Both the position numbers and the translations under genes were made by a program. A stretch of 64,000 bases of DNA from an uncultured Planctomycetota bacterium (GTDB taxonomy: Bacteria; Planctomycetota; Planctomycetia; Isosphaerales; Isosphaeraceae). Positions 29,399-45,729 of this stretch are shown in pieces; position 1 is the stretch's first letter, and each line of letters starts with the position of its first letter. The notes under the pieces were generated by a model. That model saw nothing but the letters and a program-made list of their open reading frames with translations, was not told the DNA's origin and did not search any database. Location of the stretch: the NCBI GenBank assembly GCA_963737655.1, contig CAVTTN010000002.1:1696001-1760000 (forward strand), given 5' to 3'.

Positions 29399-29970
29399 GG
29401 ACGGTCGCTCCGCGGGTCCGGGGCGTGGGGCAGGGTCTCCATCTGAGTAAGAGGGTCGGTCCTGGGGGGGGCGGCCTCGAACCCGCTCGGCCCGGGATTG
29501 TCGAGATCCTCGCCGTCCTGTCACGCCCAGATTCCCCCCGGAGGACCCGCCCCGACCCGGCCGGATGGCGAGACCCTGGGGGTGGGGCAAACGGTGATGG
29601 GCCGACTCTTCCGAAAGTGACGAAGATTCGGGCGCTCATCTTTCGCAGATCCCCGGGACTGCCCGACTGTGACGATCGTCACGACCGGACGACGTAAGTC
29701 CTTGCTAGAAAACGGGAAGGGCGTTCAAGGCGATTCGCGGGGAAGACGATACAACGGTTGGCTCGCCACGGTTCGCCACGGCGAGGACTCGGGAGCACCC
29801 CAACGGGGGTGCCGTCCGGGGGGTGCGGCCTTCGGGCCTCGGGCGCGGGAACGCCCGCCTTCGGACGGCGCCGGACAGATCCAAACGAAGTGGGAGGGCC
29901 TGCCGCGACCGGCCGGCCGGATTTCGTGGCCCCTCTCTCAGACCAAGCTTGCCAAGGAGAACCGTCTCCC

Positions 29971-30612
29971 ATGTTGAAGCCCCTGTCTTTGAGCGTCAGC
30001 CTGGCTGTCGCCCTGGGCGCGTGCAGCCTGAGCCTCGCCGGTGGTCACCTGAAGACCTATGCGTCGGGCCAGTGCGAGACCGTCGCCAGCCCGCAGTCGG
30101 TCGTCCCCTCGGCGCAGAGCATCGGGGAAGGCTGCGGCGAAGTCTGCGGCCCCGTCGCCAAGAAGTCCTGCTTCGGCAACCTCTTCAAGCACAAGCCCAA
30201 GACCTACACCTACGAGTGGGTCCTGAAGAAGAAGCGTTGCGGCGGCCTCTTCGGCGGCGGCTGCGGCACGGCCACGGCCGGCGGCTGCGAGTCCTGCGGG
30301 ACGGCCCTGCCCTCGGCCCAGTACCCGAGCAGCCAGTCTTATGGCAGCGCCCAGTACCCGACGACCTACAGCGCCCCCCAGGGCAGCTACAGCGCCCCGC
30401 AGGCCGGCTACAGCGCCCCGCAGTCCGGTGGCATGACGGCCGCCCCGGCGGCCGCCGCCGCCCCGACGATGGAAGCCCCCCCGGCCCCCGAAGTCGCCCC
30501 GGCCCCGGCTCCCGCCCCGGCCCCGCCGACCAACCCCGCCCCCGCCCCCCCGGCCCCGGCCCCGCCGACGGCCTCCAACGGCGGCCTCCAGCTCCTGCCC
30601 TCGGGCAACTGA
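29971..30612 (+). CDS. Small secreted Cys-rich protein with YSAPQ repeats and Ala/Pro tail
   Basis: RBS AAGGAG; signal peptide; 9 Cys; YSAPQ x3; own terminator. Confidence 0.85.
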   Translation: MLKPLSLSVSLAVALGACSLSLAGGHLKTYASGQCETVASPQSVVPSAQSIGEGCGEVCGPVAKKSCFGNLFKHKPKTYTYEWVLKKKRCGGLFGGGCGTATAGGCESCGTALPSAQYPSSQSYGSAQYPTTYSAPQGSYSAPQAGYSAPQSGGMTAAPAAAAAPTMEAPPAPEVAPAPAPAPAPPTNPAPAPPAPAPPTASNGGLQLLPSGN

Positions 30613-30645
30613 GACTCGATCGGCCCCAAGCCGTTCGATCGATCG

Positions 30646-30681
30646 AAGCCCACGCACCCTCGCGGTGCGTGGGCTTTTTTT
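30646..30681 (+). terminator. Rho-independent terminator
   Basis: AAGCCCACGCACC-loop-GGTGCGTGGGCTT followed by a T run. Confidence 0.9.
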
Positions 30682-30802
30682 CGTGGGGTCGGAGTGCGGG
30701 GTGAGGGTCGATGGGCGGGCGGGGCCCGCCGCCGGTTGGCGCATTGCATGCACCCTGCTTGATGGGAGGCCGGCGCCGACGGCTTTGCTTCGGCAGTGCG
30801 AA

Positions 30803-31081: not shown

Positions 31082-32562
31082 ATGCGGACCGATTCCACGC
31101 CCCGGACCGACCCCTCGCTGGACCGGCTCCCCTCGCGGGTCCGGCGGGCCTGGCGGTGGCTCTCCGGGCGGAGCCCCCAGGTCAGGATGGCCGTCGCCGG
31201 GGCCGCCCTGATCGCCCTGATCGCCGCCGGCTACGTGGCCACGACGGCCCCCGAGCCGGTCGAGACCGCCTGGCTCCACGGCGACCGTCCGTTGACGCCC
31301 GAGGAGCTGGAGGCCGTCCTCGCGGCCCTGAGCGAGGGGAAGATCCCCGCCTCGGCCTCCGAGCGGGGCCGGGTGGCCGTCCCGGCGTCGCGACGCGGCG
31401 AGGCCCTCGCCCTGCTCGCCCGCAAGAAGGTCGGCCCCAAGGGGTTGCGAGAACTCCACGAGCAGGCCGTGGCCGCCTCGCCCTGGGAAGGACCCGCCGA
31501 GAGGGCCGAGCGCCAGCAATGGCTCAAGACCCAGGAATTGGAGGTCGGCCTCGCCAAGCTCCCCGGCGTCGCCTCGGCCGAGGTCCGGATCAATCGGGCC
31601 GCCGGCCACGGATTCGGGCCCAAGGCCCCGAAGGTCGCCGCCATCGTCTGGCTCCGCCCGGCCGACGGCGAGCCCCTGCCGCCCCCGACGATCAAGAACG
31701 TCCAGGCCGTCGTCAAGTCGTTCGAGCCCGACCTGCCCGACGACGCCCTGTCGATCTTCGACGAGTCCGGCCAGGCGTACCTGATCGCCGGCAACCCCGA
31801 GGCCGGCCAGGAGCTGATGGCCCACGCCCGCGAGGAGCAGTTGCGGAGGCGGATCAAGCGCGACCTGGAGTGGATCGACGGCGTGAGGGTGTTCGTGACC
31901 CTCGACCCGATCGCCCCGGCCCCTCCCCATCGGGCCGAGAGCCGCCGGGCCCGGCCGCGACGCTCCCGCCGGGTCCCGTGGCCGTGAACCTCCCGGCGGA
32001 GGTCGCCGCCTCGGCCCCGGCCCCGCCTCCCTCGCCGACCCCTCCGCCCCCGACGGCCGCCGCGCCCCGGGCCACGGTCCTGGTCCAGGTCCCGATCAGC
32101 CACTACATCGACCGCTTCCAGAGGCTCCACCATCGCGACCCCTCGCCCGAGGACCTCCGGCCTTACGCGGCGAAGACCGAGGCGTCGATCCGGGCGACCG
32201 TCGAGCAGGCGATCCCGGCGGAGTTCGCCTCGATCCTCAAGGTCGATCGCATCGACGACCCCGGGCCCGAGCGGCCGTCGGTGGCCCCGGCCGACGCCGA
32301 GTCCCGGAGGGACCGGGCGTGGTGGCCGATCGCGGCCCTGGCCGCTTCGGCCGCCGCGGCGACGTTCGCGGCCGTGACCACCCGGAGGCTCCTGGGCCGA
32401 CGGCCCGCGGTCGAGGCCGCCGCCCCGAGCCGGCCCTCGGCCTTCGAGGTCGGCGACTCCGCCGGGCCGGCCGAGAGGGTCCGCGAGCTCGTCCGGCTCG
32501 ATCCCTCGGCCGCCTCGGGCGTCCTCCAGCGATGGATCGGGCGGGGAGGGACCGTCGGATGA
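31082..32562 (+). CDS. fliF: FliF/SctJ-like M-ring protein, frameshift near 31930
   Basis: TM, ring-building motifs (GRVAVP, ELEVGLAKLPGVASAEVRI, LSIFDESG), second TM, C-terminal RELVRLDPSAASGVLQRWI motif. Confidence 0.75.
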
Positions 32563-33125
32563 CCCCCCGGACCGAACCCGCGCCCTCCTCGGCGATCCCC
32601 TCGGCCTCGCCCCCGGCCGCCGAGACCGACCCCCTGCGGAAGGCGGCCATCCTGGTCGTCAGCCTGGAGCAGCCGCTGGCCTCGCAGCTCCTCGCGCACC
32701 TGGACCGCTCGGCCGTCGAGGCGGTCACCCTGGAGATCGCCCGGCTCGATCGGATCGCCCCGGCCGAACAACGTGCCGTCCTTGAGGAGTTTTACGGCCT
32801 GGGCCTCCGTCGGCTCCGATTTGTGTTCGACGACCTGGTGAGGCTGGACGATATAGATCTCAGGGAAGCGTTCCACGACGAGGACGCGCCGGCCTGGGCG
32901 GTGGCCCTGGCCGGGGCCTCGTCTCCGGTCCGGGCCAAGGTCCTCTCGGCCCTGGCGCCCGGGTCGGCCGCCGCCCTGAGGCGGGCCCTGGACGGGATCG
33001 GGCCGTTCCGGCTCGACGACGCCGAGGCCGCCCAGGCCGAGCTGGCCGAGCGCTTCCGCCGGCTCCACGACCACGGCCGGATCACGCTACCAGACCCCGA
33101 CGGTCGGGAGGAGATCCTTGTCTGA
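32559..33125 (+). CDS. fliG: Short FliG-like protein (N domain joined directly to C domain)
   Basis: RKAAILVVSL N-terminal motif; FVFDDL and GPFRL..EAAQ C-domain motifs. Confidence 0.8.
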   Translation: MTPRTEPAPSSAIPSASPPAAETDPLRKAAILVVSLEQPLASQLLAHLDRSAVEAVTLEIARLDRIAPAEQRAVLEEFYGLGLRRLRFVFDDLVRLDDIDLREAFHDEDAPAWAVALAGASSPVRAKVLSALAPGSAAALRRALDGIGPFRLDDAEAAQAELAERFRRLHDHGRITLPDPDGREEILV

Positions 33126-33426: not shown

Positions 33427-33754
33427 CCGACCGCGACCCTCGGGCCGGCCTTCCGCCGCCCTCTCCCCCGCTTGCTTCGGGGGAGAGGGTCTACCAGGGC
33501 CTCACGACCACCCCTCCCCGGGGATCGTCCGGGGCCGTTTCCTCCTCGGTGGGCGATTCTTCCGAGGGGTTTGGGGCGGCACGGGTTCCGTCCTCGGAAT
33601 CCGTGCCGCCCCAAATGCTTCCGGCCGAGAACCTCTCGGAAAAGGAAACGGCCCCGGGGGATCGTCGAACCGCTCTGGACGCGCCCTCCGAATCGTGTAC
33701 CCTGACGCCGCCGGTCGTCCCGGAGGGCCTCGGGTGATGCGACAAGGAGCGTCG

Positions 33755-34234
33755 ATGCCGCGTACGATCTCGCGACTCGCGGCGGCCGTCTGCGTCTTTT
33801 CGACGAGCTGGGGCCTCGGCCCGGGCCCTCGGGCCTCGGCCGACGAGCCGGCGCCGACGGTCGCCCTGCCGAACCCCTCGCGCCATCCCACGTCGCGACC
33901 CGTCGGCGGGAAGCCGGGGGCCTCGACCGGCTCGGGCGGCTTCTGGCTCGGCTCGGCCGGGGTGGCGGTCGCGTTGGCGGCCTTCGGAGGACTCAGCCTG
34001 GCGACGAAGAAGCTCCGCCCCTCCGGCGGCGACTCCCCCACGCTCCGCGTGGTCGGCCGGGCCGGGTTGTCGCCGAAGCACAGCGTTTATCTCCTCCGGG
34101 TCGGCGATCGCGTCCTGATCGTCGGCGCCGGGGGCCAGGGGCCGCCGTCGCTCCTGGGCGAGATCACCGACTCGAACGCCCTCGGCCGGCTGATCCCCGA
34201 TCGCTCGCCCGGCGGGGCCGGAGGCTCGTCATGA
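33755..34234 (+). CDS. fliO: FliO-like export assembly protein
   Basis: RBS AAGGAG; TM followed by LRVVGRAGLSPKHSVYLLRVGDRVLIVG. Confidence 0.8.
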   Translation: MPRTISRLAAAVCVFSTSWGLGPGPRASADEPAPTVALPNPSRHPTSRPVGGKPGASTGSGGFWLGSAGVAVALAAFGGLSLATKKLRPSGGDSPTLRVVGRAGLSPKHSVYLLRVGDRVLIVGAGGQGPPSLLGEITDSNALGRLIPDRSPGGAGGSS

Positions 34235-35073: not shown

Positions 35074-35201
35074 GGTGCATGAAATGCACCAGTCTGGATT
35101 CTTTGGTTTTGCAAGATCTGCATCGGAAGGGCGGCCCGGGGCCGCCGGGTGCCTGGTGCATTTCATGCACCCTACATGACGGTGCATTTCATGCACCCTA
35201 C
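35070..35201. repeat. GTAG REP-C cluster (one forward, two inverted copies)
   Basis: GTAGGGTGCATGAAATGCACC; GGTGCATTTCATGCACCCTAC at 35155 and 35181. Confidence 0.85.
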
Positions 35202-36294: not shown

Positions 36295-36363
36295 GTAGGG
36301 TCCGCTCTTGCGGACCTCCCGGCGGCTTCTCGGATCGAAGAGGTCCGCATTAGCGGACCCTAC
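36295..36363. repeat. GTAG REP-D inverted doublet
   Basis: GTAGGGTCCGCTCTTGCGGACCT ... AGGTCCGCATTAGCGGACCCTAC. Confidence 0.8.
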
Positions 36364-36398
36364 AAAAACCTTGGCCAACCGTCCTGAGAGGAGCCGCC

Positions 36399-37463
36399 AT
36401 GTCCGAAGACCGGACCCAGGCGCCTTCGGCCCGCCGTCGGCAGGAAGCCCGGGAGATGGGCGTGGTCGCCCGGAGCTCGGAGCTGACCGCCGCCGTGGGG
36501 CTGCTCGCGGCCGTGGCCTTGCTCGGGGCGTTCGGCGAATCGCTCGGCTCGGGCCTCGTCAACCTCGTCCGAGGCCCGTTCGTCGAGGGATCGATCCCTC
36601 CGTCCGACCCGTCGGCCGTCGTGGCGAGCGTCCGAGCGGCATCGGGGAAGGTCTTCGGCCCCCTGATCGGCCTCCTCGGCGGGACCGTCCTGGCGATGGT
36701 CGCGGCCCATCAGGCGCAGGTCGGCGGGATCTTCACGCCGGGCCGCCTCGCCCCGGACTTCACCCGGCTGATGCCCTCCTCCGACGGCGGCTTCCTCGCC
36801 CGAGGGGGTCGCGGCCTCTGGGGCCTGGCCAAGGCGGTCGTCGTCGTGGCCGTGGCGGCGTGGGCGATCCGGTCGCGAGGCCCCGAGCTCGCCCGCCTCG
36901 GCCATCTCGACCCGCCCGCCCTGATCTCGGCCGCCGGATCGATCGTCCGAAGCCTGTTCTTCGCGCTGGGGGTCGCCACGCTGGCCCTGGGCCTGATCGA
37001 CCTGGCGATCCAGAGGGCGAGGGTCGAGGCCCTCCTGCGGACGACCCCTCAGGAGCAGCGCGAGGACCAGAAAGCCATCGACGGCGACCCCGCCGTGAAG
37101 GCCCGCCGCCACCGCCTGGCGAAATCCTGGAGGAGCGACCCGGGGGAGATCCTCGCCGGGGCGTCGCTGGTCCTGACCGGCCCGGGGAACCTCGCCGTGG
37201 TCCTCGCCGGAGGTCCCCCGCCGGGCCGGATCACCGTCCGGGGCTCGGCCCGGGGAGGCTCGGGCGCGACCCTCGCCAAAGCGGCGAAAAAGGCCGGGAT
37301 CGGCACGATCGACGCCCCCGGGCTCGCCCGCCACTTCGCCCGAGGCGCCTCGGCCGGGCCGGCCCTGCCTCCCGAACTCGACGCCGAACTCACCCGGCTG
37401 TGGGTTCGCCGGGCCTCGGAGGGGCCGCCGAGGAGTCCAGCCGTGGCTCCGGATCGTCTCTAG
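36399..37463 (+). CDS. flhB: FlhB (SctU)-like export protein lacking NPTH
   Basis: EDRTQAPS.RR..ARE.G.V.RS.EL; DGDPAVKAR; cytoplasmic domain IDAPGLAR. Confidence 0.88.
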   Translation: MSEDRTQAPSARRRQEAREMGVVARSSELTAAVGLLAAVALLGAFGESLGSGLVNLVRGPFVEGSIPPSDPSAVVASVRAASGKVFGPLIGLLGGTVLAMVAAHQAQVGGIFTPGRLAPDFTRLMPSSDGGFLARGGRGLWGLAKAVVVVAVAAWAIRSRGPELARLGHLDPPALISAAGSIVRSLFFALGVATLALGLIDLAIQRARVEALLRTTPQEQREDQKAIDGDPAVKARRHRLAKSWRSDPGEILAGASLVLTGPGNLAVVLAGGPPPGRITVRGSARGGSGATLAKAAKKAGIGTIDAPGLARHFARGASAGPALPPELDAELTRLWVRRASEGPPRSPAVAPDRL

Positions 37464-38076: not shown

Positions 38077-38412
38077 ATGGCTTCGGCGACCACCCCGCAG
38101 ATCCGCCTGGACGACCGGGGCCGGGCGGTGATCGACGACACCCGCATGAAGGTGAAGATGCTGGTGCTCTCCCGGATCGCCCACGGCTGGGGGATCGACG
38201 AGTTGCAGACTCAATATCCCCACCTCTCCCGAGAGCAGGTCGAGGCGGCCCTGGTCTACTACGACGCCCATCGCGCCGAGATGGACGCCGAGATCGAACG
38301 GGAATATCGGGAGGTGCAGGAGCTGCGGGCCCGGCAATCCCCGAAACAGCCGACGCGGGAGGAACTGGTCGCCAGGTTGGAGGCGATGCGGGCCTCGGGC
38401 AAGCGGCCGTGA
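38077..38412 (+). CDS. DUF433-family antitoxin
   Basis: IDDTRMKV..G..ELQTQYPHLSREQVEAALVYY. Confidence 0.9.
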   Translation: MASATTPQIRLDDRGRAVIDDTRMKVKMLVLSRIAHGWGIDELQTQYPHLSREQVEAALVYYDAHRAEMDAEIEREYREVQELRARQSPKQPTREELVARLEAMRASGKRP

Positions 38413-38756
38413 GCGTGGCCTTCTACCTCGATCACAACGTCGATCGCGCCGTGGCCGAGGGGTTGCGACTCCGGGGGGTGGACGTCCTGACCGCCCTGGA
38501 GGATGGGACCACGACCCTGGCCGACCCGGACCTCCTGGATCGCGCCTCCGCCCTCGGTCGGGTCATCGTGACCCATGACCAGGACTTTCTCCGGGAAGGT
38601 CCGGCTCGTCAGCGAACGGGCCGGACCTTCGCCGGCATCCTGTACGCGCACCAGCTCGACGTCTCGCTTGGCCGACTGATCGACGACCTCGAATTGATCG
38701 CGCAGGCCCAATCGCCCGAAGATTACGCGGGTCGAGTCCGCTACTTGCCTCTGTGA
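38409..38756 (+). CDS. DUF5615 PIN-like toxin
   Basis: [35 protein letters not shown] overlap with the antitoxin. Confidence 0.88.
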
Positions 38757-38799: not shown

Positions 38800-39963
38800 T
38801 CACGGGGTGAGCGACCCCGCCGGGAACATGGTTCCGATTCGGGGGCAGTTCTCGTCGAGCAGCGCGTCGATGTTCGCGAGCTCCAGCGACTTGCCGTAGG
38901 CCCGGAGCTTGTCGCGGGTGATGTCGCGGACGAACGGGATGTTCGAGACCGCCTGGAGCTTGATCCACCCGGTCAGCCAGCCCTGCTCGAAACTCTTTTG
39001 CAGGGGGTCCTTTTCGACGTTCGGCAGGTCGGCGATCCGCACGACGTCCACATTTTTCAGCAGGACCGGGGCGTCCTTGTCTACGTCCTTGGCGGTCAGG
39101 ACCAGGGTCTTGTCCACGACCTGGGCCGGGTCGAAGCTGGCGTCGAAGGTGTCGTCGTCGGTGTCCACCGCCGTCCTCCAGGCCTCGATCTGCTGGGCGA
39201 CGACGAGCATCTCCTGCATGACCCGCTCGTTGATGGCGTTCTGCCACTGCAAGGGGTTGGCGGGGATGGCCTTGATGGACGCCGGGCGCAGGGTCGCGCC
39301 GGCGGGGCCTCGGACCGCGAACTTGGACAGGTCCTTGATCCCGTCGATCAGGAAGATGGCCTTCGCGCCCTTCATGTCCGCGTCGCTGGTCCCGAGCTTC
39401 CTCATGGCGTTGCCGACCGTCGAGCCGGCCAGGGCGCCGACGCCCCCGCCGATGAACGCCAGGGCCAGCCCCAGCAGCATGTCCTCGGCGAGCTTGACCG
39501 TGGCGTCGATGTCCTTCAGGACCTTGTTGTGCGCCTCGAACGCGTTGCCGTAGGCGAGGGAGATGCTGCTGAGCCATCCGCTGATGTGGATCTGGGCGAT
39601 CTGCACCTTGGCCACGGCGGTGTTGCACCGGGCGACGAACTGGGCCTTGGCCTCCGCCGTGCGGACGAAGAGGACCTGGGCGCCGATCTTCCGGGCCTCG
39701 GCCTTCAGGTCGAACGTCCCGGCCTGCATGTGCGCCTTGCCGGTCGCGCCGTGGGGGTCCAGGGGCACGTTCCATTCTTCCCACGTCTTGGACCCGGTCC
39801 ACCGGGTGACCAGCTTCCCGTTGTCGATCTTCCAGGAGCCGGCGCCGGTCATCCCGTTGAGCGGGTCGCTCCAGTTCACGGCCCCCTGCGCGGTGAAGTT
39901 GTAGATCCAGTTCCATTGCTGGACGTGGACGTTCCAGCTGGAATCCGTCATGGTTTGCAGCAC
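38800..39963 (-). CDS. Hypothetical protein: Trp-rich beta domain plus helical domain with hydrophobic hairpin
   Basis: RBS GGAGG; typical codon usage; LLGLALAFIGGGVGALAG segment; no signal peptide. Confidence 0.8.
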   Translation of the reverse strand: MLQTMTDSSWNVHVQQWNWIYNFTAQGAVNWSDPLNGMTGAGSWKIDNGKLVTRWTGSKTWEEWNVPLDPHGATGKAHMQAGTFDLKAEARKIGAQVLFVRTAEAKAQFVARCNTAVAKVQIAQIHISGWLSSISLAYGNAFEAHNKVLKDIDATVKLAEDMLLGLALAFIGGGVGALAGSTVGNAMRKLGTSDADMKGAKAIFLIDGIKDLSKFAVRGPAGATLRPASIKAIPANPLQWQNAINERVMQEMLVVAQQIEAWRTAVDTDDDTFDASFDPAQVVDKTLVLTAKDVDKDAPVLLKNVDVVRIADLPNVEKDPLQKSFEQGWLTGWIKLQAVSNIPFVRDITRDKLRAYGKSLELANIDALLDENCPRIGTMFPAGSLTP

Positions 39964-40215: not shown

Positions 40216-43200
40216 TCAGGGTGCATCGGATGCGCCCGGACCCGGGCCATCCAGGAGCATCAAAGCCCGATCCGCCAGGGCCTCGCCCCCGTGGGTGAAG
40301 ACGTCGTGATGCCTCGCTCCGGGGATCTCGACCAGCTCGACCGGGCCGGCGAACGCGGAGGCCAGGCGCCGGGCGTTCGCGAGCCGGACGATCGGATCGG
40401 CCGTCCCGTGGAGGATCAGGGTCGGGATGCTCAGCTTCGGGGCGAGGTCGATCGGCCGGGGCTCGTGGAGGGAGACGCCGGCCAGGACCTCCGCCCGAGC
40501 CAGGATCGCCCCGGCGAACAGGCCCGGGAGCCTCATCCGGCGGAGCCAGCCCGCCACGGCGGCTCGGAGGTCGGCATAGGGGGCTTCGAGGACGAGGGCC
40601 CCGATCCTCGGGTCGAGCGTCGCCGCCCGGACCGCGATGGCCGCGCCCATCGACCGGCCCCAGACGAGGAGCCGGGGGTCCGGGCCGACCCGATCGCTCA
40701 GGGCGTCGAGCCAGGCGAGCAGGTCGTCGGTCTCCATCCCGCCGAAGCTCGTGAAATGGCCGAGACTTCGGCCCCGTCCCCTCGCGTCGATCACCGCCAC
40801 GTTCAGCCCGCGAGCCGAGAGGGCCTCGGCCCGGTCCCTCATCGAGGATCGGTCCTCGCCGAAGCCGTGGAGGAGGACCGCCGATCGGGCTCCGGGCGTC
40901 CTGGAGCCGAGCCAGGCGCCCGAGAGATGCGTCCCGTCGGCGGCGGTCGCCTCGATCGGCTCCCACGGAGGGGGCTCGGCCTCGGTTCCGGCGAGCCTTC
41001 GGCCCGGCATCACCAGGGTCCACGCCCCCCACTCGATCACGACCAGAGCCAGGCAGAGCACCAGGCCGCCGACCAGCCCGAGGACCACCACGACCGCCGT
41101 CGGGACGATCGGGACGGCCATCGCCGGAGGGGCCGGGGCCGCCGGAGGAGGGTCGAGGAACCCGCCGACGGCCAGGCCGCCGGGGAGGAACCGGACGAGG
41201 ATCGCGCCTCGGAGCCAGGTCCGATCCACGATCGCCCCCCGGCTCGCGACGGCGTCCAAAGTGTCGCGAGAGCCGGCCTTGGGCCGCGGCTGGCTGACGA
41301 TCACCCGCTTCGGCTCGGCCCAGGCGAAGAGCCAGCCCGGGTTGGCGGTCCGGCCTCCGTGGTGAGGGGACAGCATGGCGTCGATCGGGATTTTCGGCCG
41401 GGCGACCAGCTCGGAGAGGCCGGGCCCGTCGAGGTCGCCGGTCAGGAGGAATCGGCGGCCGGAACGGTCCCGGACGTCCAGGACGAGGCTCCGGGCGTTG
41501 TCGGGCGAGCCGGGGAGCCAGCCCGGAGGGGGATGGATCGCCTCGGCCGAGGCCCCTCCGCCCAGATCCACGCGGTCCCCGGCCGAGATCGGGACGACCG
41601 GGACCCTCCGGGCGCGGAGGAGGTCCAGGAGCCGGACCGCCTCCGGGTTCGCCGAGCCTCCGAAACCGGGAGGGATGCGGACTTCGCCGATCGGGATGCG
41701 GTCCAGGAGGTCGGGCAGGGCGTTGAAGTGGTCCGAATCGGCGTGGGAGAGCAGGACCGAATCGATCCGCCGGACCCCCCGGGACCACAGCGCCGGGGCG
41801 ATCACCCGTCGGCCGACCCGGGGGTCGCGCATGGACCCGCAATCATAAAGAGACGTCCGTCCGTCCTCGGCGCGGAGGAGGACGCAGAGGCCGTGATTGA
41901 CGGCCAGGACCTCGGCCTCGAAGGTCTCCGGGAGGCTCGGGACGATCATCGAGCCGGCCGCGCCGAGCGAGACGACCCCCACCGCCGCCCAGGCCCATCG
42001 CCGGCCGCCCCTGCGTCGCCAGGTCATCCAGAGGGCCAGGCCCAGGGCCGCGTAAATCGCCGCGACCCAGCCCACGGCCGGGCCCGGGACGAACGCATGG
42101 CCTCCGGGCAGGTCGGCCCCCCATCGGACGATCGCCAGGGTCCCTTTCAGGAGCGCCGAGCAGCCCCAGGCGAACGGCAGGGCCAGGGGAGGCCAGATCG
42201 CCCCGGCGATCAGGGCCAGGGCGGCGCAGATCAGGGCGGCCGTGGTCATCGGGATCAGCGGAACATTCAAAATAATGCCGATCGGAGAGGCCAGGTGGAA
42301 CCGGAGGGCCGTGATCGGCAGCCCCACCAGCCAGACCACGGCCGAGATCGTCACCCCCTGAGCGGCCAGGGCGGCCGACCGCCGGAGGGCCTTCTTCCAC
42401 CCAGGCTCCAGGCGGCGTTCCAGGGCATCCAAGGCCGCGACGGGGTCTTCCGGGCCGGCCTGGGGGCCGCGATCGTCGGCGGGGGGCTTCAATCGCAGGA
42501 GGGCCAGCACCGGATCGACGGCCCAGACCAGCGCGGCCACCCCGAGGAAGGAGAGCTGGCAACCGGCGTCAAACAGGTGGGCGGGATTGAGGGCCAGGGT
42601 CGCCAGGGCCGCCGCGGCCAGGAGGTTCGCCGGGCGGGAGCAGCGGTCGCACAGGGCCGCCAGGCAGACCACGACGGTCATCGTCGCCGAGCGGACGACC
42701 GAGGGCAGGAGCCCCACCAGGACGGCGTAGCCGATCGTCACCACGGCCACCAGGACCTGCGACTTCTTCCGGCCCAGGCGCAGGGCGGCGCAGGCCGTGA
42801 GCAGGGCCACCGCCATGGCCTGGAGGTGGAGGCCGGAGATCGCCAGCAGGTGAGTCGTGCCGGTCCGGGCGAAGGCGTCGTTGTCGTCGGGATCGACCCC
42901 CTCTCGGCGGCCCAGGAGCAGGGCCGAGGCCAGGGGGGCGACCTCCTCCGGGAGGCCCGAGACCAGGGCCTTGCGGCTCGCCTCGCGGAGGCCGCCGAGC
43001 AGGCGCAGCCCCCAGGAGGGACGGCCCTCCGGGTCGGGCCAGAGGCCGATCGCCTCGCCGACGCTGATCCGGAGCCGGACCCCCTCGGCCCTCGCCCGGT
43101 CCCGGCGGTCGGGCTCGCCCGGGTTCATCGGAGCGGGGATCGCCCCGAGGCTCCCGGCGACGAAGACCGGGTCGCCGGCCCGGAGGTCCGAGCGGTCCCC

Positions 43201-43656
43201 CACGACCGAGACGAAGATCCGTCCCGAGGCCGGCCGCCATCGCGACTGATCGTAGATCGCCGAGATTTTCATGGCCGAGAGGGTCCGGCCGGAGTCGTCG
43301 GGCCGGTCCGAGGGGCGGAACTCGGGGACCTCGGCCAGCACGCCCCGGAGCCAGGCCGGTCGGGGGACCGACCAGTCCCCCCGGGACAGGTCGTCGGCCG
43401 CCAGGTCGGACCAGCGGCGGTGATGCCAGGCCGCGCCCAGGGCCACGAAGGCGACCAGCACGGCCACCGAGCCGATCCGGGCCCGCGACCCGAGCACCGC
43501 CACCCCGGCGGCGACCATCGCGACGGCCGCCGCCGAGGTCGTCGCCGGCGCGAACCCGAGCCGATCCGCGACGACCCCCGAGGCGAAGGCGATCGCCGCC
43601 GGGGCCAGGGGGGCGGCCAGGGCGACCGGGCGTCTCTCGGGCGTCGGGCGGCTCAT
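40216..43656 (-). CDS. comEC: ComEC/Rec2 DNA uptake protein fused to a C-terminal alpha/beta hydrolase
   Basis: NPGE, HLLAISGLH, QLSF, SHADSDH, GDL, PHHG; then TM and LLHGF, GRSMG, HGTAD, GARH. Confidence 0.9.
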   Translation of the reverse strand: MSRPTPERRPVALAAPLAPAAIAFASGVVADRLGFAPATTSAAAVAMVAAGVAVLGSRARIGSVAVLVAFVALGAAWHHRRWSDLAADDLSRGDWSVPRPAWLRGVLAEVPEFRPSDRPDDSGRTLSAMKISAIYDQSRWRPASGRIFVSVVGDRSDLRAGDPVFVAGSLGAIPAPMNPGEPDRRDRARAEGVRLRISVGEAIGLWPDPEGRPSWGLRLLGGLREASRKALVSGLPEEVAPLASALLLGRREGVDPDDNDAFARTGTTHLLAISGLHLQAMAVALLTACAALRLGRKKSQVLVAVVTIGYAVLVGLLPSVVRSATMTVVVCLAALCDRCSRPANLLAAAALATLALNPAHLFDAGCQLSFLGVAALVWAVDPVLALLRLKPPADDRGPQAGPEDPVAALDALERRLEPGWKKALRRSAALAAQGVTISAVVWLVGLPITALRFHLASPIGIILNVPLIPMTTAALICAALALIAGAIWPPLALPFAWGCSALLKGTLAIVRWGADLPGGHAFVPGPAVGWVAAIYAALGLALWMTWRRRGGRRWAWAAVGVVSLGAAGSMIVPSLPETFEAEVLAVNHGLCVLLRAEDGRTSLYDCGSMRDPRVGRRVIAPALWSRGVRRIDSVLLSHADSDHFNALPDLLDRIPIGEVRIPPGFGGSANPEAVRLLDLLRARRVPVVPISAGDRVDLGGGASAEAIHPPPGWLPGSPDNARSLVLDVRDRSGRRFLLTGDLDGPGLSELVARPKIPIDAMLSPHHGGRTANPGWLFAWAEPKRVIVSQPRPKAGSRDTLDAVASRGAIVDRTWLRGAILVRFLPGGLAVGGFLDPPPAAPAPPAMAVPIVPTAVVVVLGLVGGLVLCLALVVIEWGAWTLVMPGRRLAGTEAEPPPWEPIEATAADGTHLSGAWLGSRTPGARSAVLLHGFGEDRSSMRDRAEALSARGLNVAVIDARGRGRSLGHFTSFGGMETDDLLAWLDALSDRVGPDPRLLVWGRSMGAAIAVRAATLDPRIGALVLEAPYADLRAAVAGWLRRMRLPGLFAGAILARAEVLAGVSLHEPRPIDLAPKLSIPTLILHGTADPIVRLANARRLASAFAGPVELVEIPGARHHDVFTHGGEALADRALMLLDGPGPGASDAP

Positions 43657-43840
43657 GGGCGGATCGCGGCTCCTCGGATTCCTCGCCTTCGCCCTCGCCA
43701 CGTCGCGACGGGCCGGATGAGCATAACATCGGCCGCCCCCGGGTCGAACCCGCCGCCCCTCGAATCCCCTCGCCCGACTTCGTGCCGTCGGTTATGTTCG
43801 AGCCGGGCGGGAGCGACTTTCCAGGACCGGAGCGACGGAC

Positions 43841-44488: not shown

Positions 44489-45472
44489 TCAGAAGACGAT
44501 GGTCGGCGGCGGCCAGGTGGTGGCCGGCTGCGAGGGGACGCCGCCTCCGCCGGAAGGGCTGGTGGTTACCGGGCTTCCGCCTCCGGGATAGCCGCCTCCC
44601 GGGTAGCCGGGGCCGGGCACGAGGCCCGGAGCGGTCGGCGTGGTCCCCGGGTTGGTCGTCGGCGTGCCCCCGCCCGGATAGCTCGGGGTCGGCGTGCTCG
44701 GGCTGGTCGTGGGCGAGCCGCCCGAGCCGCTGGGCTGGGTCGTCGGCGAGCCGGGCGAGGGATAGCCCGGGCCGGGCGAGGCCGGGCCGGTCGTCGGCGA
44801 GCCGGCGCCCGGGTAGCCGGGGCCCGTCGAGCCCCCTCCGGCCGAAGGATTGGTCGTCGGCGTCCCGGCTCCCGGGTAGCCCGGGCTGGGGTGGCCCGGC
44901 GTGGGATAGCCGGTGCTCGGCGACATCCCGGGAGTGGTCGGCGTCCCGGCTCCCGGATAGCCGGTCGAGGGCGATCCCGGCGTGGGATAGCCCGTGCTGG
45001 GCGACATCCCGGGGGTCGTCGGCGTCCCGGCGCCGGGATAGCCCGGGCTGGGGTGGCCCGGCGTGGGGTATCCGGTGCTGGGGGACATGCCCGGGGTCGT
45101 CGGCGTCCCGGCTCCCGGGTAACCCGGCGGGGTGGTTCCGGGGGTCGGATAGCCCGTGCTCGGCGACATCCCGGGGGTCGTCGGCGTCCCGGCTCCCGGA
45201 TATCCCGGCGGGGTGGTTCCCGGCGTGGGGTATCCGGTGCTGGGGGACATGCCCGGGGTCGTCGGCGTCCCGGCTCCCGGGTAACCCGGCGGGGTGGTTC
45301 CGGGGGTCGGATAGCCCGTGCTGGGGGACATCCCCGGGTTGGTTGTCGGCGAGCTCCCACCGGGGTAGCCCGTCGAGCTTGGCTTGGTGGGCGTCTGGCC
45401 CAGGGCCGAGACCGCCGGCGCCAGGGCCAGGCCCAGCGCGGCAGGCAGTGCCAGCAGCGTCTTGCGCGACAT
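44489..45472 (-). CDS. Secreted Pro/Gly/Thr/Tyr tandem-repeat protein
   Basis: Signal peptide MSRKTLLALPAALGLALA; GYP repeats throughout. Confidence 0.8.
   Translation of the reverse strand: MSRKTLLALPAALGLALAPAVSALGQTPTKPSSTGYPGGSSPTTNPGMSPSTGYPTPGTTPPGYPGAGTPTTPGMSPSTGYPTPGTTPPGYPGAGTPTTPGMSPSTGYPTPGTTPPGYPGAGTPTTPGMSPSTGYPTPGHPSPGYPGAGTPTTPGMSPSTGYPTPGSPSTGYPGAGTPTTPGMSPSTGYPTPGHPSPGYPGAGTPTTNPSAGGGSTGPGYPGAGSPTTGPASPGPGYPSPGSPTTQPSGSGGSPTTSPSTPTPSYPGGGTPTTNPGTTPTAPGLVPGPGYPGGGYPGGGSPVTTSPSGGGGVPSQPATTWPPPTIVF
44852..45337 (-). repeat. Six tandem 81-bp repeats (27 aa)
   Basis: PGMSPSTGYPTPGxxxxGYPGAGTPTT x6. Confidence 0.92.
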
Positions 45473-45729
45473 GATCCTGCTCCGTCGATGAGACCGATTG
45501 GGACGAGCCGGCGGGGTGCCGACCCATCTCAGTCCGCGCAACCACGACCGTTCTGAACGATCCGAATCGAAATCGATGGCGAGGGGCCGAGAATCCGCCG
45601 GGTGATTGCCGGGACGCTCGGATGGATGGAATATTAGATCGGCGAGAAGTCGGCCGCAATAGAATTCTTGGATTTTTTGGGTTCGGATCGTGCCGGACTG
45701 TCCCGACGATCCCAGGGAAAGGCCCCACG

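Follow-up and report, generated by a model that had tools for sequence, protein, structure and literature searches.

Family-wide loss of the FlhB autocleavage motif in a flagellum-free export gate of Isosphaeraceae and its association with FlgM and sigma-28

Introduction

The window, by which the whole analysed stretch of 64,000 nucleotides from an Isosphaeraceae genome (Planctomycetota; assembly GCA_963737655.1, contig CAVTTN010000002.1, positions 1,696,001 to 1,760,000) is meant, carries an flhB gene in which GPGN occupies the place of the autocleavage motif, and the question raised by this locus is whether such an export gate can still switch between substrates and, if it cannot, which substrate it would serve. 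A sequence-only reading of the locus had claimed that NPTH is replaced by GPGN, that the gate is uncleavable and that it exports a single class of substrate. In Salmonella, FlhB with the Asn changed to Ala remains in early mode.

FlhB of the studied genome

A profile search revealed flhB as the single PF01312 match in the whole genome, with the following features:

36399..37463, forward strand: flhB, 354 aa; PF01312 (FlhB/SctU), E 1e-46
37179..37190, forward strand: GPGN replacing the NPTH/NPTE autocleavage motif, residues 261-264 (GGC CCG GGG AAC = G261 P262 G263 N264)
37401..37403, forward strand: W335, a family-specific Trp (62/69) in the column of L344 of the early-substrate pocket, mapped by alignment

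The motif lies in the context LVLT-GPGN-LAVVL, and the replacement was borne out by the bases, by the translation and by the alignment to a solved full-length FlhB (36hu_K1), where phmmer paired LVLTGPGNLAVVL of this protein residue for residue with VIVTNPTHYSVAL. The PF01312 match covers the full length of the protein, with four membrane helices and the linker, while the scores are far under the NCBIfam cut-offs (116 of 349 bits for FlhB and 108 of 358 bits for SctU). The membrane domain and linker are conserved, and the C-domain displays a remodelled surface on a fold that is predicted to be intact. The AlphaFold2 model (8-row alignment; pLDDT 73.8, pTM 0.47) contains four long helices and an alpha/beta C-domain, in which GPGN forms the turn joining strands 255-261 and 265-271. 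A Foldseek search with this model placed the FliPQR-FlhB complex at the top rank and uncleavable YscU/EscU domains next, and the C-domain matches were the C-domains of YscU, EscU and FlhB (E 0.006-0.04). The uncleavable YscU/EscU mutants (PDB 2v5g, 2w0r, 2jlh, 3bzr), which are the closest C-domain matches to the model and share a continuous C-domain fold with it, are single substitutions in an intact domain, whereas 18 of 20 flagellar invariants are replaced in the FlhB of the family.

Three other accounts of the motif were ruled out, namely a sequencing error or chance, because the loss of Asn is family-wide; a second intact flhB elsewhere in the genome, because a single match was found; and cleavage at N264, because no Pro follows N264 and this residue is not conserved.

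Conservation of FlhB in Isosphaeraceae

FlhB was detected in 109 of the 121 Isosphaeraceae genomes, including 47/47 of the well-completed ones, and in 52 of the 53 genera, and could be read from 83 of the 109 genomes having a match. Whether the loss of Asn is conserved had been left to an alignment of orthologues, and it is: Asn was absent from the cleavage column in 83/83 family genomes, and also in 120/120 of the best 120 of 224 database homologues, where position 1 of the motif is G in 117 and A in 3. Among the 69 family members with at least 60 residues past the site (one of them, G070, is probably a frameshift read-through), position 1 is G in 65, D in 3 and A in 1 and position 4 is G in 60, giving the family consensus GxxG. 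The N that this genome has at position 4, where His or Glu normally stands, precedes Leu instead of Pro and is rare (1/69 in the family; 4/120 in the best 120 of 224 homologues). The remaining 14 of the 83 proteins are short, comprising all members of the genera g52 (5/5) and g39 (3/3) and four further proteins, besides one cut by a contig end and one by a frameshift. In the FlhB of flagellated Planctomycetia, the motif was kept in 31/31 (NPTE in 19, NPTH in 12), a mostly top-scoring sample that leans towards the canonical motif. FlhB of the genomes G145, G220 and G244 was not located.

Differential conservation was also observed along the protein. Of the residues that are near-invariant in flagellated relatives, 9/21 are kept in the membrane part and 2/20 in the C-domain, where the Tyr-Asp loop is replaced by GGPPP, the Ala-Pro pair matching A286/P287 is lost and the L344 column holds Trp in 62/69; A286/P287 and L344 are early-substrate pocket residues as given in the available text of PMC13344023. 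The dN/dS of the C-domain ranged from 0.03 to 0.69 in 12 family pairs versus 0 to 0.08 in 9 flagellated pairs, the pairs not being independent, and was below 1 in all three regions of FlhB for every pair with a value. Judged by these sequences, the C-domain in Isosphaeraceae appears to be under selection yet rebuilt. With the catalytic Asn gone family-wide and the fold predicted to be intact, we infer with good support that the FlhB of Isosphaeraceae is uncleavable.

Gate cluster and its neighbourhood

The flhB gene belongs to a cluster of flagellar export genes, of which the other members and signals in the window are as follows:

29723..29753, forward strand: sigma-28-type promoter-like site (TTCAAG ... 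GACGATAC), upstream of the small gene
29971..30612, forward strand: small gene encoding 213 aa; product rich in Cys, with a Pro/Ala tail and a start resembling a signal peptide; no Pfam match
30645..30684, forward strand: intrinsic terminator-like hairpin, 14 pairs and a T run, separating the small gene from fliF
31082..32562, forward strand: fliF (MS ring) in two frames, PF01514; break between 31924 and 32068
32559..33125, forward strand: shortened fliG, 188 aa (about 330 aa in flagellated relatives); PF14842 and PF01706
33118..33426, forward strand: second fliG gene, C-domain only, PF01706; found in part of the relatives
33737..34234, forward strand: fliO, start uncertain; PF04347, TIGR03500
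34231..35073, forward strand: fliP; PF00813, TIGR01103
35211..35471, forward strand: fliQ; PF01313, TIGR01402
35491..36264, forward strand: fliR; PF01311, TIGR01400

The flhA-flhF-flhG-fliA block and, separately, flgM are located elsewhere in the genome, outside the window; in many relatives the window block and the flhA block form one cluster, and the order fliF-G-O-P-Q-R-flhB-flhA-flhF-(flhG)-fliA is conserved in the family. The small Cys-rich gene is conserved at the head of the gate cluster, and an ESM Atlas search with its protein returned planctomycete clusters only, none of them named. The frame change of fliF sits within a Pro/Ala-rich linker, and fliF is a single ORF in most relatives, so the break in this genome (assembly completeness 87.7%) may be either an assembly error or a real recent break.

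The gate proteins FliPQR-FlhB-FlhA and the MS ring proteins FliF/FliG are of flagellar descent, and an injectisome origin was ruled out by the profile scores (757 bits of FlhA to the FlhA profile versus 506 to SctV) and by the tree, which places FlhA among planctomycete flagellar FlhAs. FlhA keeps 87/98 of the flagellar invariants of its membrane region and 37/53 of those of its cytoplasmic region, and the pore helices of FliP and FliQ are strongly conserved. The genome also contains the complete set of the nanotube CORE (FliO, FliP, FliQ, FliR, FlhB, FlhA).

Several minor features were recorded around the cluster. Two kinds of short palindromic repeat occupy 35074-35200 (fliP/fliQ) and 36300-36365 (fliR/flhB), whose patterns recur 240 and 47 times genome-wide. 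Downstream of flhB, a DUF433 and DUF5615/PIN-like pair (38077-38756) is likely a toxin-antitoxin module, followed on the reverse strand by a 387-aa ORF of lower G+C (38800-39963) that matches no Pfam family clearly (a glycine zipper weakly), a 1161-aa ComEC/Rec2-like protein (40216-43701; DUF4131, Competence, metallo-beta-lactamase) with a C-terminal alpha/beta hydrolase fusion, and a protein of 327-350 aa (44489-45541) with a signal-like start and PGTTPPGYPG-type repeats, whose upstream sigma-28-type site scores 15.9.

Flagellar gene inventory

Isosphaeraceae keep fliF-G-O-P-Q-R, flhB, flhA, flhF, fliA and flgM, and FlhA, FlgM and FliA (the last at 84-98% identity) were each observed in 30/30 family genomes. 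Flagellin was found neither in these 30 genomes nor in this genome, and FliI reached the cut-off in 0/30, with 7/7 flagellated controls over it. The rod/hook C-domain was absent from 49/49 relatives and from this genome, in which the rod N-domain was not found either; the rod N-domain occurred in 4/121 family genomes, all fragmented assemblies, where the rod/hook genes are real. FliH, MotB, FliE and FliK were each found in 0/5 genomes, a search without a flagellated planctomycete control, so that diverged copies could be missed, and no SctN ATPase was found. The maps of the gate clusters showed no secretin, needle or translocon gene. An unlinked SctQ/FliN-like gene is present in 24/29 relatives and missing at the syntenic site in this genome.

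Two observations accompany this inventory. In most family genomes the SctQ/FliN-like protein (about 400 aa) is paired with an upstream protein of no known family, the pair being flanked by response regulators and a kinase (L141:1492-3188, L142:8067-10009), and both members are absent at their own syntenic site in this genome (C2 near 2951700). Moreover, four loci (L255-L258, of genomes G140, G245, G260 and G221) belong to genomes with rod/hook genes and two FlhAs, the second FlhA lying beside fliA, in three of them with an flhF match; in G140 the clade of the first FlhA is a separate one, the second FlhA falls among the axial-less FlhAs, and the native gate may persist in such genomes beside an acquired flagellum.

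The system might be regarded as a decaying relic of a lost flagellum, since selection on FlhB is relaxed, several genera carry truncations, this genome has a fliF frameshift and lacks the SctQ/FliN-like gene at its syntenic site, and the family has been described as poor in flagellar genes and without swarmer cells (PMC5352709, available text). The near-universal presence of FlhB in well-completed genomes and genera, dN/dS below 1 wherever it could be valued and the family-wide retention of the same gene set speak against this, and a relic is considered highly improbable.

Of the known type III substrates, FlgM alone was found in the family (30/30), and it is a late one. A gate locked early like the N269A mutant, exporting a rod/hook-class substrate too diverged to detect, is the probable sense of the sequence-only reading and would agree with an Asn lost while the C-domain fold is predicted to be intact and selected, and with the attached C-domain that keeps Salmonella in early mode (PMC13344023, available text). 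However, no early substrate was found (rod/hook domains, FliE, FliK), the columns of the early docking pocket are changed, and the genera g52 and g39 and other lineages delete the domain, a deletion that abolishes early export in Salmonella according to the same source; this explanation is very unlikely. With no early substrate found and FlgM present, the gate does not correspond to the early-locked state of the N-to-A mutant. The single substrate class of the sequence-only reading agrees with the gene content, although the class is not the early one of the locked Asn mutants. More than an oddity of one gene, the loss of the motif is the hallmark of an entire export system that has no flagellum and is linked to sigma-28.

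FlgM, FliA and sigma-28-type sites

Over 28 family genomes, FlgM identity amounts to 82% in residues 1-22, 56% in residues 23-36 and 78% in residues 37-94, the N-terminal stretch being no less conserved than the C-terminal one; FlgM scores over the cut-off of PF04316 and below that of TIGR03824, and FliA reaches 269 bits with TIGR02479 (cut-off 190). Native FliA was present in 63/63 Planctomycetia tested, and as 18 of these are gate-less, sigma-28 does not everywhere need a gate; its role extends across the class, with gate-independent control in other lineages. Full-length FlgM was observed with the native gate in 45 of 46 axial-less gate genomes (FlhB present, rod/hook domain absent), as against ten gate-less genomes in which the FlgM-like match is partial and C-terminal in 5 and lacking in the other 5. 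Three FlgM-like proteins (L261-L263, of G124, G141 and G162; two gate-less genomes and one with the other flagellar clade) have a conserved C-terminal half and a different N-terminus, and such C-terminal-only proteins are a possible second way to control sigma-28.

Export of non-flagellar cargo, or a nanotube platform of the CORE type with FlgM and sigma-28 kept separately, is unlikely on these data. It is favoured by the complete CORE set, by the proposal that CORE-only bacteria form nanotubes (PMC6456723, available text), by the non-flagellated Lysobacter that exports enzymes through its flagellar type III system (PMC7688988, available text) and by the presence of FliA in all 63 Planctomycetia tested; yet full-length FlgM tracks the native gate, FliI, which the Lysobacter system uses while exporting FlgD, is not there to unfold folded cargo, and the cluster holds no conserved candidate cargo gene.

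The sequence T(T/C)AA-N16/17-(G/T/A)(C/T)CGAT occurs about 200 bases before flgM in 24/27 relatives and in this genome. We take it to resemble the sigma-28/sigma-D consensus, and FliA would be expected to read it, judged by this consensus and by its place before flgM and fliA. The motif also precedes fliA, two TolC-like genes and an RpoS-like sigma in 4/4 relatives and this genome, and an ExeA-like ATPase, a 1398-aa protein and a cyclophilin-domain surface protein in 2/4 relatives and this genome. A promoter-like site precedes the small Cys-rich gene in 18/18 relative loci, making this gene a predicted sigma-28 target; its site has a variant -10, which was missed by a sigma-28 regular expression on the window and detected by the weight matrix. 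No sigma-28-type site was found before fliF, fliO, flhB or flhA, which suggests that sigma-28 does not drive the gate genes.

The strict motif gave 11 matches in this genome against 3 in a shuffle; all 11 are intergenic, where the intergenic share is 0.19 by our own gene calls, and as AT-rich motifs favour intergenic DNA, this overstates the enrichment. Four relatives gave 39, 20, 15 and 27 matches versus 12, 1, 5 and 14 in the controls (30 of the 39 in the first relative were fetched). With the weight matrix, 19 sense versus 13 antisense sites score at least 16 genome-wide, a weak enrichment. Outside the family, sites scoring at least 13 precede fliA in 9/14 other axial-less genomes, and the RpoS-like sigma is preceded by the motif irregularly, with scores from 3 to 20.5 over 30 genomes and antisense values reaching 22.7, so the link to this sigma factor is claimed for Isosphaeraceae only. 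Motif scores of at least 16 were seen for 3/54 LEPR-type surface-protein genes versus 16/3447 (p 0.003, post hoc), which is a lead only. The RpoS-like group-2 sigma itself (L358, C2:6497686-6498522) shows 66-78% identity in 30/30 other Planctomycetia, rising to about 90% among family members.

The sites before ftsK and rsmH score 2.1 (no promoter-like site) and 10.4. The retention of FlhF and FlhG next to flhA, and an ATPase, FliH and stator plug that were not found (FliI in 30 genomes; FliH and MotB in 5), would suit an assembly of FlhF/FlhG, gate, FliG and MS ring that secretes nothing and instead acts as a polar landmark or signalling scaffold, labelling the pole where buds form or being sensed by a kinase. 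This possibility has a low probability, for the membrane region of FlhA, the pore helices of FliP/FliQ and the N-terminus of FlgM are all strongly conserved, the cluster shows no partner kinase and ftsK is without a promoter-like site here.

Comparison with known systems

In Bacillus subtilis, Calvo and Kearns reportedly found in 2015 that FliF, FliG, FliO, FliP, FliQ, FliR, FlhA, FlhB and FliK are enough to export FlgM in the absence of the hook-basal body. Isosphaeraceae keep the same proteins except FliK; unlike that minimal set, which is the mutant state of a flagellated cell needing FliK, theirs is the wild type, in which neither FliK nor a cleavage site was found. With the FlgM/sigma-28 checkpoint of Salmonella (PMC13344023, available text), Isosphaeraceae share the gate proteins, FlgM, FliA and a sigma-28-type site before flgM, and differ in that flagellin and FliI (30 genomes), the rod/hook C-domain (49) and FliK, FliE, FliH and MotB (5) were not found, the loss of the switch motif is a natural one and the targets predicted for sigma-28 have envelope and regulatory functions. 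The hook-completion trigger of Salmonella, which acts through FliK and FlhB cleavage, likewise has no counterpart among the genes found.

Three further systems were compared through the available text of their descriptions. Lysobacter enzymogenes OH11 also re-uses flagellar export genes without flagellin, but keeps FliI and FlgD and exports enzymes, whereas Isosphaeraceae are without FliI and keep FlgM, FliA and FlhF (PMC7688988). The nanotube CORE shares FliO, FliP, FliQ, FliR, FlhB and FlhA without a flagellum, known here from genes, and beyond it Isosphaeraceae co-retain FliF, FliG, FlhF, FliA and FlgM; the table of PMC6456723 scores Isosphaera pallida for FliP and FlhA only, and the available text does not name it as CORE-only. 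Streptomyces WhiG is again a sigma-28 re-used for non-flagellar genes after loss of the flagellum, controlled by RsiG and c-di-GMP, where Isosphaeraceae instead keep FlgM and the export gate (PMC12871210). No published description of the present system was found in the literature searched, most subscription journals lying outside its reach.

Proposed mechanism

Our preferred reading, which we consider somewhat better than an even bet, is that a flagellum-free, switchless gate exports FlgM and so times sigma-28. It is based on the gene content, the family-wide loss of Asn, purifying selection, the conserved FlgM and FliA and the conserved promoter-like motif, from which we infer FlgM export and the non-cleavage of FlhB. 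FlhF and FlhG would place and time the assembly of the gate at the pole, so that gate completion would replace hook completion as the checkpoint. The FlhB chain would stay uncleaved, Asn being absent, and its C-domain would neither dock early substrates nor block late ones, given the rebuilt pocket and loop and the outright deletion of the domain in several genera. FliPQR-FlhB-FlhA within the FliF/FliG ring would then export the small FlgM on proton motive force alone; with FlgM exported into the periplasm, sigma-28 (FliA) would be freed and would transcribe flgM, fliA, the RpoS-like sigma, the two TolC-like genes and other envelope genes.

FlgM is disordered, and a small disordered FlgM may need little for export, despite the absent FliI. 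In Salmonella, export without the ATPase is possible (PMC4230889, available text), while efficient late export requires near-wild-type FliI (PMC12802181, available text), and by this analogy the absence of FliI from the family would count against FlgM export, as do the fliF frameshift and the missing SctQ/FliN-like gene in this genome. According to the available text of PMC13344023, removal of the cleaved FlhB C-domain and of Fluke in Salmonella leads to constitutive, FliK-independent export of FlgM into the periplasm without rod and hook, early export is lost once the C-domain is removed, FliK can be bypassed by changes that destabilise the domain, and late export is expected to be blocked as long as the C-domain stays covalently attached. 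The truncated planctomycete FlhBs resemble this laboratory flhB-deltaCCD strain and, by analogy, would directly match its late-locked state. In a GxxG FlhB, the attached C-domain would need to be disarmed, as its rebuilt surface suggests; since a folded C-domain under selection persists in most of the family, the disarming is an assumption and weighs against the exporter reading. The co-retention of gate and FlgM could also reflect a shared history in few lineages, and the gate might have cargo besides FlgM.

If the switchless FlgM exporter is real, it would add pure gene regulation to motility and injection as a use of the flagellar export machine. The C-domain was removed or rebuilt several times in nature where rod and hook genes were lost, which offers a natural test of whether it is an inhibitor that has to be removed for late export, as well as of whether a gate can export without any ATPase. 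The system further provides a handle on planctomycete cell-cycle control, with sigma-28 in every genome tested and a short predicted target list.

Recurrent reduction of the flagellum in Planctomycetia

The sample comprised 201 Planctomycetia, 151 of them outside Isosphaeraceae, and 16 of these 151 are axial-less, with FlhA in 16, FlgM in 15, FliI in 8 and flagellin in 0. Thirteen of their FlhBs could be read: 8 end in or right after the linker, 1 has an unrelated tail, 3 are full length without the motif (AGSA, NGMA, DAEG) and 1 has NPVH. In the FlhA trees, the axial-less members of f4 join the flagellated f4 (support 0.999; SH-aLRT 99) and Isosphaeraceae form a separate clade, and an AU test on FlhA (24 of 68 rows, fast LG+G4 search, 2000 replicates) rejected a single clade of the axial-less sequences (delta lnL 172). 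These phylogenies argue that the flagellum was reduced more than once in Planctomycetia, the number of times not being part of the claim, and the loss of the FlhB cleavage motif is both conserved and convergent.

A broader reading is put forward tentatively and carries a little less than even probability: Planctomycetes would repeatedly have stripped the flagellum to a pole-placed, ATPase-free, switchless gate whose sole product is a regulatory signal, FlgM export firing a cascade from sigma-28 to the RpoS-like sigma that runs an envelope or daughter-cell programme in budding cells, with the loss of the FlhB site or C-domain as its convergent signature and as nature's counterpart of the late-locked gate engineered in Salmonella.

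The FlhB with NPVH belongs to G224 (L212), an axial-less genome without FlgM that combines this cleavable-type FlhB with FliI, three FliN-type matches and a very divergent, long-branch FlhA of another clade, and its system is probably a different type III system.
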